Shown: positions 7,493 through 63,691 of the stretch, piece by piece
Position numbering within the stretch: position 1 is the stretch's first letter
How the letters are laid out: each line of letters begins with the position of its first letter
Origin: Escherichia coli
Lineage (GTDB): Bacteria > Pseudomonadota > Gammaproteobacteria > Enterobacterales > Enterobacteriaceae
Direction: 5' to 3' (one strand)
NCBI RefSeq assembly: GCF_011045215.1
Contig: NZ_CP049201.1
Length of the DNA stretch: 64,000 nucleotides
Notes under the pieces: model-generated
The model's input: only the letters and a program-made list of their open reading frames with translations
Databases searched by the model: none
Told to the model about the DNA's origin: nothing
Made by a program: the position numbers and the translations under genes

Positions 7493-7648
7493 TTACTCCT
7501 CAGATTCGTAAGCTGTGAAGACAGCGACCTCCGTCTGGCCGGTTCGGATTCGTACCTCGCAGAGGTCTTTCCTCATTACCAGTGCCGTCACTATGACGGT
7601 TAAACAGATGACGATCAGGGCGATTAACATCGCCTTTTGCTGCTTCAT
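7493..7648 (-). CDS. hok: Hok/Gef-family type I toxin
   Basis: MKQQKAMLIALIVICLTVIVTALVMRKDLCEVRIRTGQTEVAVFTAYESEE is near-identical to remembered HokD; AAGGAG 7 nt upstream. Confidence 0.85.
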   Translation of the reverse strand: MKQQKAMLIALIVICLTVIVTALVMRKDLCEVRIRTGQTEVAVFTAYESEE

Positions 7649-7705
7649 AGCCTGCTTCTCCTTGCCTTTCGGCACGTAAGAGGCTAACCTACGTTTGTGT
7701 AGCAT
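7493..7705 (-). CDS. mok-like overlapping reading frame
   Basis: In-frame N-terminal extension (MLHKRRLASYVPKGKEKQA) upstream of the hok ATG, as in hok/mok/sok loci. Confidence 0.45.
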   Translation of the reverse strand: MLHKRRLASYVPKGKEKQAMKQQKAMLIALIVICLTVIVTALVMRKDLCEVRIRTGQTEVAVFTAYESEE

Positions 7706-8102
7706 AGATTGGGCCTCAGATTAATGTTAAGCGTCTTGCCGGACGCGTAATGTTAACTGGGGCTTTTCTCTGTCTGCCTTACAGTGGCATGCCCGAGGCA
7801 GACAGCCTCAGGCACCCGCAACAATCTTACCGACACCGATAAGAAAACGCTATTTTTTATTGCCAGAACCTTCTGCCCAGGCTAATGTATCCGCGTCAGA
7901 ACGGCGCAATGCGCTCGCCTGAGATACGTTTACTTGTCATTGGTGGCAACAGATAACGGCAATTGTTGTTTCTGTTTGTTTCCTTCAAAAACCCCGGACC
8001 ATCAATCCGGGGTTTTTGTTTGTTATCCCCAGCGGCAAATCGAATACACCATCAGCGCCACCGCCATCGCAATTCCTGCCGTTGTGAATGCTTCAGGCCA
8101 GG

Positions 8103-13530: not shown

Positions 13531-14040
13531 TTAGCGAACTTCAAAAAGAGACTGCATCCATTCATAACCTTCAGGGTATCGACGCTGTTCGCATTCTGGT
13601 ATCGCGCCATAGTGCTCTCTCAATAATTGAAGTGCGTCATCTCTCTTTTTCTGAACTGATTTTCTTGCTTCAACCAGCTCTGGAATCAGCGAATATCCCA
13701 CCGAAAGTGATCCAATACCCACCTCATGTTGACGAGCAGTTACAAGATGTGCCATACAACCAGCGTGCTGGATTGACTCCCTGCTCAGAGGCTGAATGGG
13801 ATCACTCTCTGCTGAAGAAATACCAAGATTTGTATAATCCTCAATAAGCCCGGCACACGCTTCTGCATCAGCCAGCTTTATTCTGGTTTCCTTGCGCTGC
13901 TCTCTGGCTGACAAACGCCAGAGCAGCGCATTAGCTTTATGTATCAACCACTCTGCCAGCTCCACATCAGATAAACCGCCACGCCAGATGTGCGGACTGT
14001 TTTCGTAAACGCTCAGTGTCAATTTTTTGTCATTACTCAT
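13531..14040 (-). CDS. hypothetical protein between YdaT-like and O-like genes (strand ambiguous)
   Basis: 169-aa ORF from ATG 14038-14040, 13 nt after the YdaT-like stop, weak RBS; overlaps a plus-strand ORF that has a strong SD. Confidence 0.4.
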   Translation of the reverse strand: MSNDKKLTLSVYENSPHIWRGGLSDVELAEWLIHKANALLWRLSAREQRKETRIKLADAEACAGLIEDYTNLGISSAESDPIQPLSRESIQHAGCMAHLVTARQHEVGIGSLSVGYSLIPELVEARKSVQKKRDDALQLLREHYGAIPECEQRRYPEGYEWMQSLFEVR

Positions 14041-14053
14041 ATTTATTACCCAA

Positions 14054-14479
14054 TTAATGCACAGCCAGAGTGTTTCCTGCCGGGCCACCACGATTCATCT
14101 GATCGAACAGAACGATCGCTGATGCAACGAAATCATCAATATCTTTCACCAGCCGTTCCTTCGTCTCTACCAACTCCCGAAAATAAGCGGAACTGTGGCT
14201 GCGCATTCGGGCCACCAGCGGAGGCGGCATTGCTTTTTCGATCGCTGGTAACAACGCCTGAATTTTTTTAACCGCATCAGGGGTGTCTTTATCCAGCCAA
14301 CGGAAAATTTTCTGGGTATTACGAGCCAGCGCTTCCGGATGCCTGTCGTCATATAGCTCCGGGAACGTCATACCCAGCTCAAAATAAGCCTGGGTTATTT
14401 CAGCTGCCGGAACTTTTTCACCGTCCGGATGCGCCCAGGCATTCATCGCCATACGGATGTGTTCATGCTTGATTTTCAT
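14054..14479 (-). CDS. YdaT-like regulator (CII-like position)
   Basis: 141 aa; N-terminus MKIKHEHI and length match remembered Rac YdaT; follows the Cro-like gene with a 17-nt overlap. Confidence 0.7.
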   Translation of the reverse strand: MKIKHEHIRMAMNAWAHPDGEKVPAAEITQAYFELGMTFPELYDDRHPEALARNTQKIFRWLDKDTPDAVKKIQALLPAIEKAMPPPLVARMRSHSSAYFRELVETKERLVKDIDDFVASAIVLFDQMNRGGPAGNTLAVH

Positions 14480-14738
14480 GAATCAACTCCGGTGTATTTG
14501 GTGTGTTAGCCTTATCTCCAGCAGGCAACCCGTCAGTTGGATTCGGGTATAAATCTGGTCGCAATTCATGAGGAGTCACCCCAGTTGCAATATAAATTTG
14601 ACGAACCCGTTCCCCCGTCGGAACTCGACCATTGTATTCATTTGCCCATTTGTGTATTTGAGATGGCCAAGCCCCTATTGCACGCCCTAGTGGACGAATA
14701 CCACCAGCAATCTTTATTGCTTTGTCCAATGCTGTCAT
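14463..14738 (-). CDS. Cro/YdaS-like HTH regulator
   Basis: 91-aa ORF divergent from the repressor gene; GGAGG upstream; helix-turn-helix-like segment GIRPLGRAIGAWPSQIHKW. Confidence 0.65.
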   Translation of the reverse strand: MTALDKAIKIAGGIRPLGRAIGAWPSQIHKWANEYNGRVPTGERVRQIYIATGVTPHELRPDLYPNPTDGLPAGDKANTPNTPELIHENQA

Positions 14739-14807
14739 ACAACCTCCAGTTCAACTAATCATAACAATTGTTCACTTAAAACGAACATAAGTCAACACCT
14801 CGAGGAA

Positions 14808-14835
14808 TTGTTAGTGTTCACTGAACGGTTATAAT
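14808..14835 (+). promoter_or_regulatory. sigma70-like promoter for the repressor gene; transcript probably leaderless
   Basis: TTGTTA (14808-14813), 16-nt spacer, TATAAT (14830-14835); ATG at 14842, only 6 nt after the -10; palindrome GTTCAcTGAAC (14816-14826) in the spacer. Confidence 0.4.
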
Positions 14836-14841
14836 TGCTAA

Positions 14842-15231
14842 ATGGACATGAGAAAAAAGCAATACGACACCCCGCTAGCAGAAAGGTTAGATGCGATCTC
14901 TCAACAGCATCATTTAAGTGGTTCAGATTTAGCGCGTATCGCTGGTGTAGGTCGTTCATCAGTCAACGCATGGAAAAAAAGAGGAACAATCAGTAAAGAT
15001 TCCGCAGCCAAAATTGCAGAAGCCACAAACGTTTCCCTTTCTTGGCTACTGACAGGGAAAGAAGAGACAAATAGAGAAGCGCTTGATGATGACGAGAAGG
15101 CCCTGCTTGATGTTTACAGAAACCTGCCACCTGTAGAACGTAGAAATATGCTGGCAGCTTTTCAAATGCGACTTCAAAAACTGACCGAATTTTACTCAGA
15201 ATACGTCGACCCAATAACACGACAAAAATAA
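14842..15231 (+). CDS. prophage repressor-like HTH protein (XRE family, no peptidase domain)
   Basis: 129 aa; HTH segment LSGSDLARIAGVGRSSVNAWKK; divergent from the Cro-like gene across a 103-bp operator region. Confidence 0.65.
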   Translation: MDMRKKQYDTPLAERLDAISQQHHLSGSDLARIAGVGRSSVNAWKKRGTISKDSAAKIAEATNVSLSWLLTGKEETNREALDDDEKALLDVYRNLPPVERRNMLAAFQMRLQKLTEFYSEYVDPITRQK

Positions 15232-15399
15232 TTCTTTATTTTACAGAATCATACCGCCGCAAGGCGGTTTTTTTTACCTTTTACGTATTCATAATGTTGA
15301 CTTTTGTTCACCCAAAGAGAACAATGTATTCCATCAAAGCACAACGGTGCGACAGGTCTTAGTTCCGCTACCCCGGCGTTAAGGGGAAATGAGGTCAAC

Positions 15400-15555
15400 A
15401 TGGATACTATCGATCTTGGCAACAACGAATCTCTGGTATACGGCGTGTTCCCCAACCAGGACGGCACGTTCACCGCCATGACGTATACCAAAAGCAAAAC
15501 GTTTAAAACCGAATCTGGCGCGCGTCGCTGGCTGGAAAGAAACTCAGGTGAGTGA
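15400..15555 (+). CDS. small protein, YdaF-like
   Basis: 51 aa from internal ATG of the track ORF; resembles remembered Rac YdaF and occupies the same position next to the repressor. Confidence 0.45.
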   Translation: MDTIDLGNNESLVYGVFPNQDGTFTAMTYTKSKTFKTESGARRWLERNSGE

Positions 15556-20949: not shown

Positions 20950-21198
20950 ATGGCAAGACTTATTCTGCTCACTGAGTGGGCAAAAGAGGAATTCAGCGAT
21001 CCGGTCCCTACTCCGGGCACGTTAAGTAAATACGCTAAAGCCGGAATGATATTTCCTCTCCCCAAAAAAGTTGGAAGACACTGGCGAGTGGATCCACGAG
21101 CTCGCTTTGTCGGAATGGTAAACAAGCCGGAGGTGATCGCCACAGATCACCCTGCTTTGAAGAGGATACTGGAAGATGGCGCGCCCGCGAAAATATAA
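20950..21198 (+). CDS. xis: excisionase (lambda Xis-like)
   Basis: 82 aa, overlaps int start as in lambda; GMIFPLPKKVGRHWRVDPRARFVG resembles lambda Xis. Confidence 0.7.
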   Translation: MARLILLTEWAKEEFSDPVPTPGTLSKYAKAGMIFPLPKKVGRHWRVDPRARFVGMVNKPEVIATDHPALKRILEDGAPAKI

Positions 21199-22306
21199 AA
21201 CCGAAGTTCCGGGACTATCTCCGTATTTTGACAAAAGAAATAACAAAGTTTACTGGCGTTACAGGCATCCCATAACAGGCAAAAATCACGGTCTCGGCAG
21301 TATTGACCAGAAACTGGCAGAAACTATTGCAGCAGAAGCGAACAGCCGTCTTGCCAGGCAGCAAATGGAACAAATGCTCAGTCTGCAGGAGAAAATTATT
21401 AATGATACCGGCGGTTCATCAACCGTTTCCATTTTTCTGAATAATTACAGAAAAATTCAACAGGAAAGATATGAAAACGGAGAGATCAAACTCAACACGC
21501 TGAAACAAAAAGCGGCCCCTCTCAGGGTATTTGATGAACGTTTTGGCACCAGACCGTTAGATGCCATAACTGTAAAAGATGTGGTATCGGTGCTGGAAGA
21601 GTACAAGGCCAGAGGACATAACAGAATGGGGCAAATTTTCAGGAAGGTACTGATCGATGTTTTCCGGGAAGCTCAGCAAACAGGCGATGTTCCGCCAGGC
21701 TTTAACCCTGCAGAATCGGCAAAAAAACCGCAGGTGCGGATATCAAGACAGCGACTGACTTTTGATGAGTGGATGATGATTTATAACGCAGCGGAAAAGG
21801 ATGGTTACTTTTTACAGCGCGGCATGCTGCTGGCACTGATGACAGGCCAGCGCCTTTCAGATATTTGCAAAATGCAATTTTCGGATATCCGGGATGGTTA
21901 TCTTCATGTCGAACAGCAAAAAACAGGAACCCGGATTGCCATCCCTCTTGCTCTGCGTTGCAATAAATTAAATCTCACCCTGGATGATGTGGTGTCATCC
22001 TGTCGCGATTGCGTTCTTAGTCCGTGGCTATTGCACCACCATCATGCGAAAGGGACAGCCAAGCGCGGCGGGATGGTTAAGCCAGCAACGTTAACAGTTG
22101 CATTTAAAAAAGCGCGGGATTCTGTGGATTACAACTGGCGTGCTAATGGCACCCCACCCTCTTTCCATGAGCAGAGATCTTTATCAGAGCGATTGTTCAG
22201 AGAGCAGGGAATTGATACCCAAATTTTGCTGGGTCATTCGAATCAAAAAATGACCGATATTTACAACGATGCACGCGGCAAGGAGTGGAAAAAACTGGTC
22301 ATTTGA
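21176..22306 (+). CDS. int: tyrosine integrase (lambda Int family)
   Basis: 376 aa; LTFDEWMMIYNAA...LALMTGQRLSDICKMQFSDIRDGYLHVEQQKTGTRIAIPLAL aligns with remembered lambda Int catalytic region. Confidence 0.9.
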   Translation: MARPRKYKTEVPGLSPYFDKRNNKVYWRYRHPITGKNHGLGSIDQKLAETIAAEANSRLARQQMEQMLSLQEKIINDTGGSSTVSIFLNNYRKIQQERYENGEIKLNTLKQKAAPLRVFDERFGTRPLDAITVKDVVSVLEEYKARGHNRMGQIFRKVLIDVFREAQQTGDVPPGFNPAESAKKPQVRISRQRLTFDEWMMIYNAAEKDGYFLQRGMLLALMTGQRLSDICKMQFSDIRDGYLHVEQQKTGTRIAIPLALRCNKLNLTLDDVVSSCRDCVLSPWLLHHHHAKGTAKRGGMVKPATLTVAFKKARDSVDYNWRANGTPPSFHEQRSLSERLFREQGIDTQILLGHSNQKMTDIYNDARGKEWKKLVI

Positions 22307-47186: not shown

Positions 47187-47271
<85 letters not shown>

Positions 47272-47430
47272 TCACTTTCAAAAGTACCTGAACTCTCAAG
47301 CGAATCCGTAAATAAATATTCTGCCCAAGCGGGGAAGGACGAGAAGCTTCGACCAAGGTTCGACTCGAGCGCCAGCGAGAGAGCGTTGCCGCAGGCAACG
47401 ACCCGAAGGGCGAAGCGCGCAGCGCTGAGT

Positions 47431-47449
47431 AATCCTTCCTCCACCACCA
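47431..47449 (+). repeat. direct repeat of the tRNA-Tyr 3' end (tyrT downstream repeat unit)
   Basis: AATCCTTCCTCCACCACCA matches the tRNA 3' terminus with one mismatch; an AAGGTTCGAcTC partial copy lies at about 47357. Confidence 0.6.
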
Positions 47450-63287: not shown

Positions 63288-63691
63288 CAGTTATATCTCC
63301 TCCGATGACGGAAATCGGGGGAGATAATATAAATTCCTGCTTATTGTATTTCTTCATACTACCTGGACAGGTCGTTAATCAGAATTGCGAGCCTGTACCA
63401 CAACCTGCACGAATCCACTGCAACAGCTGTTGAAAAGCCGGAATGTACTCTTCATTGCAAACATTTCAGGGATGAAGTGAAGATGAATTGAGACGTAGTA
63501 TCCACACCAAGCCGGCGTTATCCGGTGAGGCGCAATGTTGCGGGGGCTTTATCCCTGGTGGCATTGGTTGCTGGAAAGAGAAAACCCCCGCACGTTGAGA
63601 GGTAAAACCTGACAACAGAACGGGGGCTAATCTTGAAACCAGACACTTCAAGAATAGCCGCAAAATGTTGTCATTACAACAAGGCGGCTAT

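Follow-up and report, generated by a model that had tools for sequence, protein, structure and literature searches.

A lambdoid immunity switch of uncharacterised specificity in an Escherichia coli prophage, with a predicted leaderless repressor transcript

The 103 bp that separate a repressor gene from a divergently oriented Cro-like gene in an Escherichia coli prophage (positions 14739–14841 of the 64,000-nucleotide stretch of DNA analysed here, which we call the window) are probably the OR-type control region of a lambdoid immunity switch, in which the repressor is made from a leaderless PRM-like transcript and 17-bp operators are located at PR and PL. Its design follows that of switches analysed before in other E. 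coli prophages, including a repressor mRNA that starts with the AUG; the finding is in that sense sound but ordinary. To judge from its sequence, the immunity specificity is new and uncharacterised, of a known kind, and nothing about it departs from known lambdoid logic.

When recomputed, the coordinates agreed with an earlier note on this DNA, which had described divergent genes 103 bp apart: a sequence check places the start codon of the Cro-like gene (minus strand, read as CAT) at 14736–14738 and the repressor ATG (plus strand) at 14842–14844. The gene order is int-xis-exo-dicB-ydfA-like, repressor, and then, divergently, the Cro-like gene, ydaT and replication genes, with an ORF of integrase size (21176–22306) on the repressor side. 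It is matched by the annotated prophage gene order at near-identical E. coli loci and, together with the Pfam and PHROG family assignments, fits the earlier suggestion of an immunity switch, which here is that of a lambdoid prophage. Two general features of lambdoid switches are found here: divergent repressor and Cro genes flank a short control region between an int/xis/recombination arm and a cII/replication arm, and repeated operator-like sites overlap both divergent promoters and recur at a second (PL) promoter. The immunity type is carried by 81 of 5,426 complete E. coli genomes (about 1.5%), and never in two copies within one genome; the O157:H7 reference strains Sakai and EDL933, looked for because maps of transcription starts have been published for such strains, are absent among the 60 of these 81 carrier records that are listed.

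The repressor gene (14842–15231, plus strand) was correctly recognised in the earlier note as that of the repressor, and is of the CI type. Its 129-aa product (Pfam Phage_CI_repr, 1.6e-12) has only HTH families as Pfam matches, and has the build of the short DicA/Gifsy-type repressors (size criterion c. 125–135 aa), with an N-terminal HTH, a C-terminal helical domain (LLxxFxxLPxxEQ motif) and no S24 peptidase domain. DicA itself shows 25% identity by BLASTP (E 3e-6), and alignment of the repressor family profile with DicA by hhalign gave a probability of 97.9% (E 4.8e-13, 118 columns); by these alignments, the protein is a full-length DicA homologue. A search of solved structures gave only marginal HTH matches (186 CI, E 0.002; an Xre antitoxin). 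A longer repressor ORF is precluded by an in-frame TAA at 14839–14841. Downstream, the maintenance transcript would end at an intrinsic terminator (15253–15277, plus strand) made up of a GC-rich hairpin, ACCGCCGCAAGGCGGT, followed by T8, and conserved in homologues.

The promoter that had been proposed for the repressor is present as described, and was found independently by a consensus scan (14808–14835, plus strand; 10/12). TTGTTA (14808–14813) is separated by 16 nt from TATAAT (14830–14835), which is followed by 6 nt (TGCTAA) and then the repressor ATG. Its –35 hexamer is weak (4/6). Just eight sites scoring at least 10/12 occur on both strands of the whole window, and a promoter of at least that score with its –10 ending 5–8 nt before the ATG arose in only 0.07% of 20,000 dinucleotide shuffles of the 103 bp. 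The block at 14807–14838 is nearly invariant in homologues, more so than any other part of the region. Neither the first in-frame ATG nor a second one at 14848 is preceded by a Shine–Dalgarno sequence (best matches to AGGAGG 3/6 and 2/6, respectively), nor is there any possible upstream in-frame start, a combination expected of the leaderless class. The predicted transcription start (14842, plus strand) is the A of the first ATG, the seventh nucleotide after the –10; thus, the promoter would start at, or within one or two bases of, this A, and the repressor would be translated from the 5'-terminal AUG of a leaderless maintenance transcript.

The 6-nt spacing between the –10 and the ATG is shared with lambda (TAGATT-TAACGT-ATG) and CP-933P (GATAAT-TACCAC-ATG). 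It is again 6 nt in the relatives L027, L028, PHB10 and Kp4865-4, all of which keep the same PRM layout, and is 7 nt in Kp4882-1 and 8 nt in ST974 phi18.2, the geometry being held in relatives with as little as 38% identity. (In SEN34, TATTCT was seen by eye 6 nt before the ATG; the scripted scan did not score this hexamer.) The intervening bases vary (TGCTAA, TGCCAA, TGCCAC, TCCGTT, GGCATT, GGGCTT), and none of these versions has a Shine–Dalgarno sequence. A distant relative with 33% identity (L031) carries GAGGTG, so the Shine–Dalgarno-less trait is specific to this group. The 5' end of the repressor mRNA is predicted to be unpaired, folding of its first 60 nt gave no special structure (z 0.18), and the AUG is followed by an A-run, as it is in cI, paaR2 and dicA. 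With the lambda/paaR2 geometry kept in relatives while the six bases vary, the leaderless repressor mRNA postulated in the earlier note seems the best reading. The cI mRNA of lambda was found by experiment to be leaderless. Leaderless translation of paaR2 has been proven by 5' RACE, N-terminal sequencing and mass spectrometry (PMC8630535), and the dicA, racR and ymfK mRNAs of K-12 are also leaderless (PMC4681348, PMC9638921, PMC8794815).

The second ATG, which had not been mentioned before, is as conserved as the first, both being kept in all 29 loci, and it gives rise to a different reading, that transcription starts at about 14842 but translation begins at 14848, yielding 127 aa behind a 6-nt leader, or else that the start lies a few bases off. 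The NCBI pipeline does start the repressor at 14848 in related genomes (databases hold both forms), and relatives begin with MRK or MQKK, aligning with the second ATG. However, in every relative that has a single ATG the –10 ends 6–8 nt before it (in SEN34, by eye), a distance that here points to the first ATG, the second being 12 nt from the –10. Moreover, a 5'-terminal AUG is the recognition signal of leaderless initiation (PMC8630535), the second ATG has no Shine–Dalgarno sequence, and the sole change in codon 2 among homologues is synonymous (GAC/GAT). On balance, we regard such a short leader as rather unlikely.

On the other side of the control region, the Cro-like gene (14463–14738, minus strand) encodes a 91-aa regulator of the YdaS family (Pfam YdaS_toxin, 7.2e-10; PHROG_35 transcriptional repressor, 5.8e-25) with a weak match to the Cro structures 5W8Y and 3BD1 from Xylella prophages. 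It has a conventional Shine–Dalgarno sequence (GGAGG, 14743–14747, minus strand; TGGAGG 5/6, 5 nt before the ATG), which is invariant in homologues. The PR-like promoter (14767–14795, minus strand) consists of TTGACT (14795–14790), a 17-nt spacer and AACAAT (14772–14767), scoring 9/12, and its hexamers are invariant in all 15 distinct homologous sequences. It would drive the Cro-like/ydaT/replication operon through a normal leader with the GGAGG ribosome-binding site, and is arranged back to back with the PRM-like promoter, both being of the sigma-70 type. The next gene, ydaT (14054–14479, minus strand), specifies the cII-equivalent activator (Pfam YdaT_toxin, 8.2e-11; PHROG 'CII-like transcriptional activator', 8e-47), and matches the CP-933P YdaT structures (PDB 3C4R/8BT1) with an E value of 2.5e-82. 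At the cro/ydaT junction is a candidate YdaT operator of the OM type, TTGATTTTCATGAATCAA (14469–14486), which occurs once in the window and exactly matches the site footprinted in CP-933P, TTGATT-N6-AATCAA (PMC9986795). A PRE-type establishment promoter is expected near this site, from which YdaT would supply a leadered establishment transcript.

Might the repressor be made mainly from leadered transcripts, whether from this YdaT-activated promoter or from racR-like upstream starts, with the TATAAT promoter minor or silent? The exact YdaT operator, the three promoters of racR and the weak –35 of the PRM-like promoter could all be cited for this. Against it, a PRE-type promoter needs YdaT, which by analogy is repressed in the lysogen (PMC8630535), so that a local promoter is required for maintenance; no other part of the region is as conserved as the PRM block; the consensus scan found no other plus-strand promoter-like site within the 103 bp; and there is no ribosome-binding site that a leadered mRNA could use. 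We therefore think it unlikely that leadered transcripts predominate over the leaderless one, although extra transcripts of this kind may exist here, as only one of the three racR promoters is leaderless.

Turning to the operators, the GTTCA and CGAAC half-sites to which the earlier note had pointed are present (GTTCA at 14749 and 14770, CGAAC at 14782–14786), and the strongest candidate, by sequence, is the 17-bp inverted repeat bounded by the last two. This predicted main (OR1-like) operator, GTTCACTTAAAACGAAC (14770–14786), lies in the spacer of the Cro promoter and overlaps its –10. It has a twin at a PL-like promoter (TTGACT-17-AACAAT; 15297–15325, plus strand) upstream of the DUF1391/ydfA-like gene, in a position equivalent to dicBp of Qin (PMC10448788), where the candidate OL is GTTCACCCAAAGAGAAC (15306–15322). 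A 31-nt stretch of the PR region recurs at PL as a reverse complement (77%), with the same two hexamers and with the 17-bp repeat placed alike relative to them. Of the three occurrences of GTTC-N9-GAAC in the 64 kb (0.99 expected), two are the PR and PL sites. In 14 distinct homologous sites the operator arms are invariant and the centre is variable, and a PWM trained on the operator sites of homologues and scored over the c. 64,000 positions of the window ranks OL first and the main operator second (22.6 bits, the best match elsewhere scoring 14.4). An inverted repeat of 17 bp is also found in relatives at 38–81% identity, equally far from the ATG (–72 to –75). In L028 and L029, in which the repressor is 74% identical and the Cro HTH is altered, the half-sites at –91, –71 and –25 read TTAGC, not TTCA. 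The possibility that the PL operator of these two loci had tracked the altered OR half-sites was checked and rejected: that of L028 is without the change. Since the 17-bp repeat has perfect arms of only 4 bp and is not significant by chance statistics within the window alone, the case for it as an operator rests on the PL twin, the conservation and the covariation. On this evidence, the binding consensus of the repressor would be GTTCAy-N5-nnGAAC, the inverted repeat being bound by a dimer or higher oligomer, presumably held together by the C-terminal helical domain, and binding to the strong copies at 14770–14786 and 15306–15322 would shut off both early operons.

The earlier note had named as candidate operators two compact palindromes, AACAATTGTT (14763–14772) and GTTCACTGAAC (GTTCAcTGAAC, 14816–14826), both of which are present where it had placed them. 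Each is unique in the window (0.13 and 0.19 expected, respectively), but such palindromes are individually unremarkable: at least one was found in 22% of shuffles, and at least two in just 2.5%. In homologues AACAATTGTT is replaced by AACATTGTT, AACGATTGTT, AATAATTGTT, GCCAATTGTT or CATCATTGTT; its left half varies freely, a 1-bp deletion breaks the symmetry in seven loci, and the right half alone is invariant, being the –10 of the Cro promoter (AACAAT, minus strand). It is thus better seen as this –10 plus a non-conserved left half than as an operator. GTTCACTGAAC, in the PRM spacer, is invariant among close homologues and is well located for a PRM-proximal operator, but the palindrome is lost in relatives at 81% and 74% identity (it becomes GTTCACTGAGA in L027 and ATTAGCCGTTG in L028), only the left half-site being kept or covarying. 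The 17-bp repeat has a counterpart at the PL-like promoter but neither palindrome does, and the half-site centres of an 11-bp palindrome would be too close together for the HTH-dimer geometry of the 17-bp sites. It is accordingly very unlikely that the compact palindromes themselves are the operators.

We place the strong operator in the 17-bp repeat, with weak half-consensus sites predicted to flank it on either side, at the PR start (14749–14765) and in the PRM spacer (14810–14832). The second operator of relatives is a further inverted repeat of 17 bp (–26 to –29 relative to the ATG), in the place that GTTCAcTGAAC occupies here; the palindrome itself probably does no more than contribute to a weak site of 17 bp. 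Its left half-site, at –25, covaries with the PR operator in L028. There are two candidate 17-bp registers in this PRM-proximal zone, 14810–14826 (GTTAGTGTTCACTGAAC) and 14816–14832; they are 6 bp apart, leaving the extent of the site ambiguous, and their PWM ranks (51 and 439, respectively) show it to be weak. A site here would give negative autoregulation, or else be the one that the Cro-like protein prefers. As neither 17-bp register scores well, and all close homologues keep the 11-bp palindrome unchanged, the data are compatible with a composite in which the perfect half-site GTTCA at 14816–14820 serves both the palindrome and a 17-bp register, and the repressor and the Cro-like protein discriminate between PR and PRM by half-site spacing, not by sequence; we give this elaboration very little weight. 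The other weak operator-like site, GTTCAACTAATCATAAC (14749–14765), lies over the Cro transcript start and is uncertain; it has PWM rank 10 of c. 64,000, and its left half-site covaries in L028 (TTCA to TTAG), but it is the most variable block among close homologues. As for an OR2-like third operator between the two –35 hexamers, the only candidate, an 8-bp palindrome (CCTCGAGG, 14798–14805), proved not to be conserved. Around –42 of PRM no operator-like site is centred, and hence there is no sign that the repressor activates PRM in the manner of CI. On the expectation for a bistable switch, that both regulators bind shared operators with opposite orders of preference, the covariation of half-sites with both HTHs in L028 and L029 bears only indirectly.

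How such a switch might be induced bears on whether it still works. Repressors of the DicA/Gifsy class are inactivated by a small antirepressor (Rem, GfoA), not by RecA-mediated cleavage. Within the window, the prophage part contains no LexA box and a search for a Rem-like antirepressor found no homologue (tblastn E 1.4), but the prophage extends past the left end of the window and antirepressors can be encoded elsewhere (PMC10448788). With no sign of an inducing route in the window, the prophage may be a cryptic one, and one could go further and regard the features described here as relics without present regulatory activity, many such prophages of E. coli being defective and one related contig (L030) having a frameshifted repressor. 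This seems very unlikely: the repressor, Cro-like and YdaT ORFs are intact, the 15 distinct sequences combine invariant hexamers and operator arms with variable spacers, there is a single copy per genome in 81 genomes, and Rac and Qin are cryptic, yet their equivalent repressors are active, and either essential or strongly repressing.

Among characterised systems, DicA/DicC of Qin has the same kind of short two-domain repressor without a cleavage domain, divergent regulator genes, and a repressed promoter of the PL type in front of a ydfA/DUF1391 gene and, beyond it, dicB; dicA is transcribed as a leaderless mRNA (PMC4681348), as is predicted here for the repressor gene. The Cro partner differs, the YdaS-family protein having no similarity to DicC, and the YdaT cII equivalent is a further difference from Qin, as are the half-sites (GTTCA in a 17-bp site, against GTTAG and 16 bp in Qin), the intergenic distance (103 bp, against 83 bp) and the lack of a detectable Rem-like antirepressor in the window.

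The PaaR2/YdaS/YdaT system of CP-933P has the same gene order, a near-identical YdaT, an identical YdaT operator, the same geometry of –10, 6 nt and ATG (leaderless translation being proven for paaR2), and a second version of the PR promoter at PL, with operators to match. The CP-933P type is marked by YdaT and, where cro meets ydaT, by the operator TTGATT-N6-AATCAA, both of which are present here; the marks of PaaR2-type immunity (a PaaR2-like repressor, GTTTAGTAA-type repeats and paaA2-parE2) are not. From the near-identical YdaT, one might have expected the repressor and Cro-like protein to be PaaR2 and YdaS of CP-933P, but BLASTP finds no similarity in either case, the repressor showing only a distant relationship to PaaR2 in its C-terminal domain (hhalign 78%, E 1.7e-5). 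The CP-933P operators are four 18-bp repeats of the GTTTAGTAA type, and here the repressor gene is followed by a terminator, not by a paaA2-parE2 toxin–antitoxin pair. Identity to CP-933P continues to about 14491 and breaks off right after the YdaT site, which points to a heteroimmune cassette carried in a shared chassis.

RacR/YdaS/YdaT of Rac shares the layout of divergent repressor, YdaS and YdaT. A leaderless transcript comes from the strongest of the racR promoters, and RacR binds intergenic repeats (PMC9638921). The relationship is confined to the RacR HTH region (hhalign, 37 columns), RacR (158 aa) having a different C-terminal part, and the Rac intergenic region is 123 bp long and holds three promoters for racR, besides nine monomer sites that have been proposed (PMC9638921). 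Lambda resembles the present region in having divergent promoters within about 100 bp (100 bp in lambda), 17-bp operators, a second set at OL/PL, a PRM –10 ending 6 nt before the ATG of its leaderless cI mRNA, and an identical cro ribosome-binding site, GGAGGTTGTATG. It differs in that the repressor here has no S24 peptidase/RecA-cleavage domain, one strong operator takes the place of three comparable ones at OR, and the cII equivalent is the unrelated YdaT.

The value of these observations is mostly for annotation and comparison, and the understanding of lambdoid switches is unchanged by them. They define an uncharacterised specificity, made up of the operator GTTCAy-N5-nnGAAC and its repressor/Cro pair, whose carriers include many O157:H7 strains, and suggest that the repressor start codon may be annotated two codons short in many RefSeq genomes. 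They also extend the link between maintenance repressors and leaderless mRNAs, a spacing of 6–8 nt between the –10 and the ATG being found across phage relatives from Escherichia, Salmonella and Klebsiella.

Two divergent genes, one for a Cro-like protein of 91 aa (minus strand, start at 14738) and one for a repressor of 129 aa (plus strand, start at 14842), are separated by 103 bp. A consensus scan found a promoter for each within this gap. The PRM-like promoter (plus strand, 10/12) has TTGTTA at 14808-14813 and, after 16 nt, a perfect TATAAT at 14830-14835, which ends 6 nt before the repressor ATG; the PR-like promoter is TTGACT-17-AACAAT on the minus strand (14795 to 14767). Sites of PRM quality number just eight in the whole window, and only 0.07% of 20,000 shuffles of the control region gave a promoter of equal quality whose -10 ended 5-8 nt before the ATG. 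On re-inspection of the window, all coordinates and sequence strings in an earlier note proved correct, including those of two compact palindromes, AACAATTGTT (14763-14772) and GTTCACTGAAC (14816-14826), each unique in the window; individually, however, such palindromes are non-significant (at least one in 22% of shuffles, at least two in 2.5%). A perfect 8-bp palindrome between the two -35 elements, CCTCGAGG (14798-14805), lacks conservation among homologues and probably arose by chance.

The repressor matches Pfam Phage_CI_repr (1.6e-12) and HTH_3, the 91-aa protein matches YdaS_toxin (the Cro-like family), and the next minus-strand gene encodes YdaT (E 2.5e-82 against the crystallised YdaT of prophage CP-933P); database names for the regulator proteins are generic only. 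In close E. coli loci the gene order is standard lambdoid: to one side lie int, xis, exo, dicB, a ydfA-like gene and the repressor gene, and to the other the Cro-like, YdaT, replication, Q, lysis and packaging genes. Of 5,426 complete E. coli genomes, 81 have the 631 bp that span control region and repressor, never more than once each, as expected for an immunity determinant. Decaying copies of the region also exist, since one IMG/VR copy (locus L030, 2501-2710) has a frameshifted repressor (69 aa). Phages mEp237 (1014-1893) and SEN34 (1504-2316) each have two tandem paralogues of this repressor; gp39 of mEp237 has an annotated start just 13 bp away from that of cro and is probably overextended by about 30 codons.

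Elsewhere in the window, a 186-aa ORF (13531-14091) flanked by ydaT and the replication gene is without a Pfam match and corresponds to PHROG_8304 (unknown function; 5e-119). Rfam matches at 7643-7817 and 1902-1972 are to sok antitoxin RNA (109 bits), fitting the hokD locus of related prophages, and, weakly, to a tRNA-like element (36 bits, minus strand) not called by ARAGORN. The prophage late genes extend past the left end. On the right, an integrase-sized ORF ends at 22306, with host genes beyond, and a 212-aa ORF adjoins int where a related strain has an OmpW-family pseudogene; the host chromosome (22352-64000) includes tRNA-Tyr with RtT RNA (47187-47449) and rdlD (63579-63644).

Might the repressor mRNA be leaderless, as the earlier note claimed? 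In E. coli K-12, three of the five leaderless mRNAs detected by differential RNA-seq encode the prophage regulators dicA, racR and ymfK (PMC4681348); the strongest racR promoter yields a leaderless transcript (PMC9638921), and 5' RACE, N-terminal sequencing and mass spectrometry established the same for paaR2 (PMC8630535). The spacing of -10, 6 nt and ATG in the window (TATAAT-TGCTAA-ATG) is the same in lambda cI (TAGATT-TAACGT-ATG) and CP-933P paaR2 (GATAAT-TACCAC-ATG). It is also found in 29/29 IMG/VR loci (73-100% identity), among which the 6 nt themselves vary (TGCTAA, TGCCAA, TGCCAC, TCCGTT). Among cultured-phage relatives (38-60% identity), a scripted scan gave 6 nt in PHB10 (GGCATT) and Kp4865-4 (GGGCTT), 7 nt in Kp4882-1 and 8 nt in ST974 phi18.2; in SEN34, unscored by the script, visual inspection placed TATTCT 6 nt ahead of the ATG. 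No ribosome-binding site precedes the repressor ATG in the compared IMG/VR loci and cultured-phage relatives; GAGGTG is present in a 33%-identical relative. In the window, no Shine-Dalgarno sequence precedes either repressor ATG (14842 or 14848), the minus-strand gene having TGGAGG, and an in-frame TAA (14839-14841) rules out a longer repressor frame. In the predicted mRNA, nt 1-8 are unpaired and the AUG is followed by an A-run, a feature shared with cI, paaR2 and dicA. From the geometry shared with proven cases and the comparative data, it seems likely that the maintenance transcript is leaderless or has a leader of at most 6 nt; the promoter-ATG arrangement is as claimed, and the transcription start itself is placed by analogy.

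All relatives conserve both in-frame ATGs (14842 and 14848). In related genomes the NCBI pipeline takes the second (127 aa) and other callers the first (129 aa), and databases hold both forms. The promoter geometry favours the first, which we consider the likelier start, so many RefSeq repressor records may be two codons short.

Which repeats, then, are the operators? The earlier note proposed the compact palindromes, together with further GTTCA/CGAAC half-sites, but when 15 distinct homologous control regions were aligned the left half of AACAATTGTT varied freely (with a 1-bp deletion in seven loci), and the invariant right half, ATTGTT, is the Cro promoter -10 (AACAAT on the minus strand). 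We reassign the main operator to an adjoining 17-bp inverted repeat, GTTCACTTAAAACGAAC (14770-14786), which fills the PR spacer and overlaps the -10 by 3 nt; in homologues its arms are invariant and its centre variable. Downstream of the repressor terminator is a reverse-complement copy of the PR region (31 nt, 77%) with the same -35 and -10, in which GTTCACCCAAAGAGAAC (15306-15322) occupies the same register. The consensus scan also found this PL-like promoter (15297-15325, hexamers identical to those of PR), which precedes a DUF1391/ydfA-like gene (15401-15555), in a position matching dicBp in Qin. The 64 kb contain three GTTC-N9-GAAC matches (0.99 expected), two of them being these PR and PL sites, and a weight matrix trained only on the homologues' sites placed the same two first and second (22.8 and 22.6 bits; next 14.4) among about 64,000 window positions. 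Relatives and CP-933P have 17-18-bp inverted repeats in two places relative to the repressor ATG, one at -68 to -75 and the other at -26 to -29.

The other proposed operator, GTTCAcTGAAC, lies at -26, matching the second of these positions, but the palindrome is not conserved (it is GTTCACTGAGA and ATTAGCCGTTG in the related loci L027 and L028), and its two possible 17-bp registers score weakly (ranks 51 and 439). The conserved feature at these positions is a half-site. In L028 and L029, with a 74%-identical repressor and an altered Cro HTH, the half-sites at -91, -71 and -25 are all TTAGC, the window having TTCA at -92, -71 and -25; this co-variation is the best indication that these positions are recognition elements. 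As a caveat, the PL operator of L028 and L029 lacks the half-site change of OR. The OR half-sites of such relatives (GTTAG/CTAAC; L028 and L029, 2396-2500; L032, 2351-2434) are also those of the Qin dicA-dicC operator GTTAGTCATAACTAAC, their repressor being only about 23% identical to DicA.

Because its YdaT is so close, CP-933P was chosen for comparison, its immunity region being recovered from published primer sequences. The window repressor and Cro-like protein show no BLASTP similarity to PaaR2 or CP-933P YdaS, and DNA similarity ends about 5 nt past the YdaT operator, near 14491. That point marks the left boundary of the immunity cassette that was exchanged: a different cassette in the same chassis, a classic lambdoid mosaic. 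PaaR2 shares only the C-terminal domain (profile match, 78% probability) with the window repressor, and RacR of Rac only the HTH, whereas DicA is a distant full-length homologue (BLASTP 25% identity, E 3e-6; family profile 97.9% probability, E 4.8e-13, 118 columns). DicA belongs to the Gifsy class of short, non-cleavable repressors; it shuts off a PL-type promoter ahead of ydfA, and the antirepressor Rem inactivates it (PMC10448788). The RBS region of lambda cro, GGAGGTTGTATG, is identical to that of the Cro-like gene (14727-14747), although the proteins are unrelated in sequence.

The best-supported model is a DicA-type version of the lambda switch. Bound to strong operators in the PR and PL spacers, the repressor would block the Cro/YdaT/replication and ydfA-dicB-exo-xis-int operons; the weak site in the PRM spacer may serve autoregulation or be a Cro target. 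The maintenance transcript would be leaderless, monocistronic and terminated at 15253-15277, and an establishment transcript would come from YdaT bound at its operator, TTGATT-N6-AATCAA (14469-14486), an exact copy of the footprinted site that spans the Cro stop and ydaT start. CI-like activation is not evident, as PRM has no operator near -42, and as for a route to induction, no LexA box was found in the prophage part of the window and no Rem homologue in the window. The earlier observation holds, and its interpretation largely so, except in the choice of operator repeats. The element adds an uncharacterised immunity specificity to a well-understood kind, and its significance is mainly for annotation.
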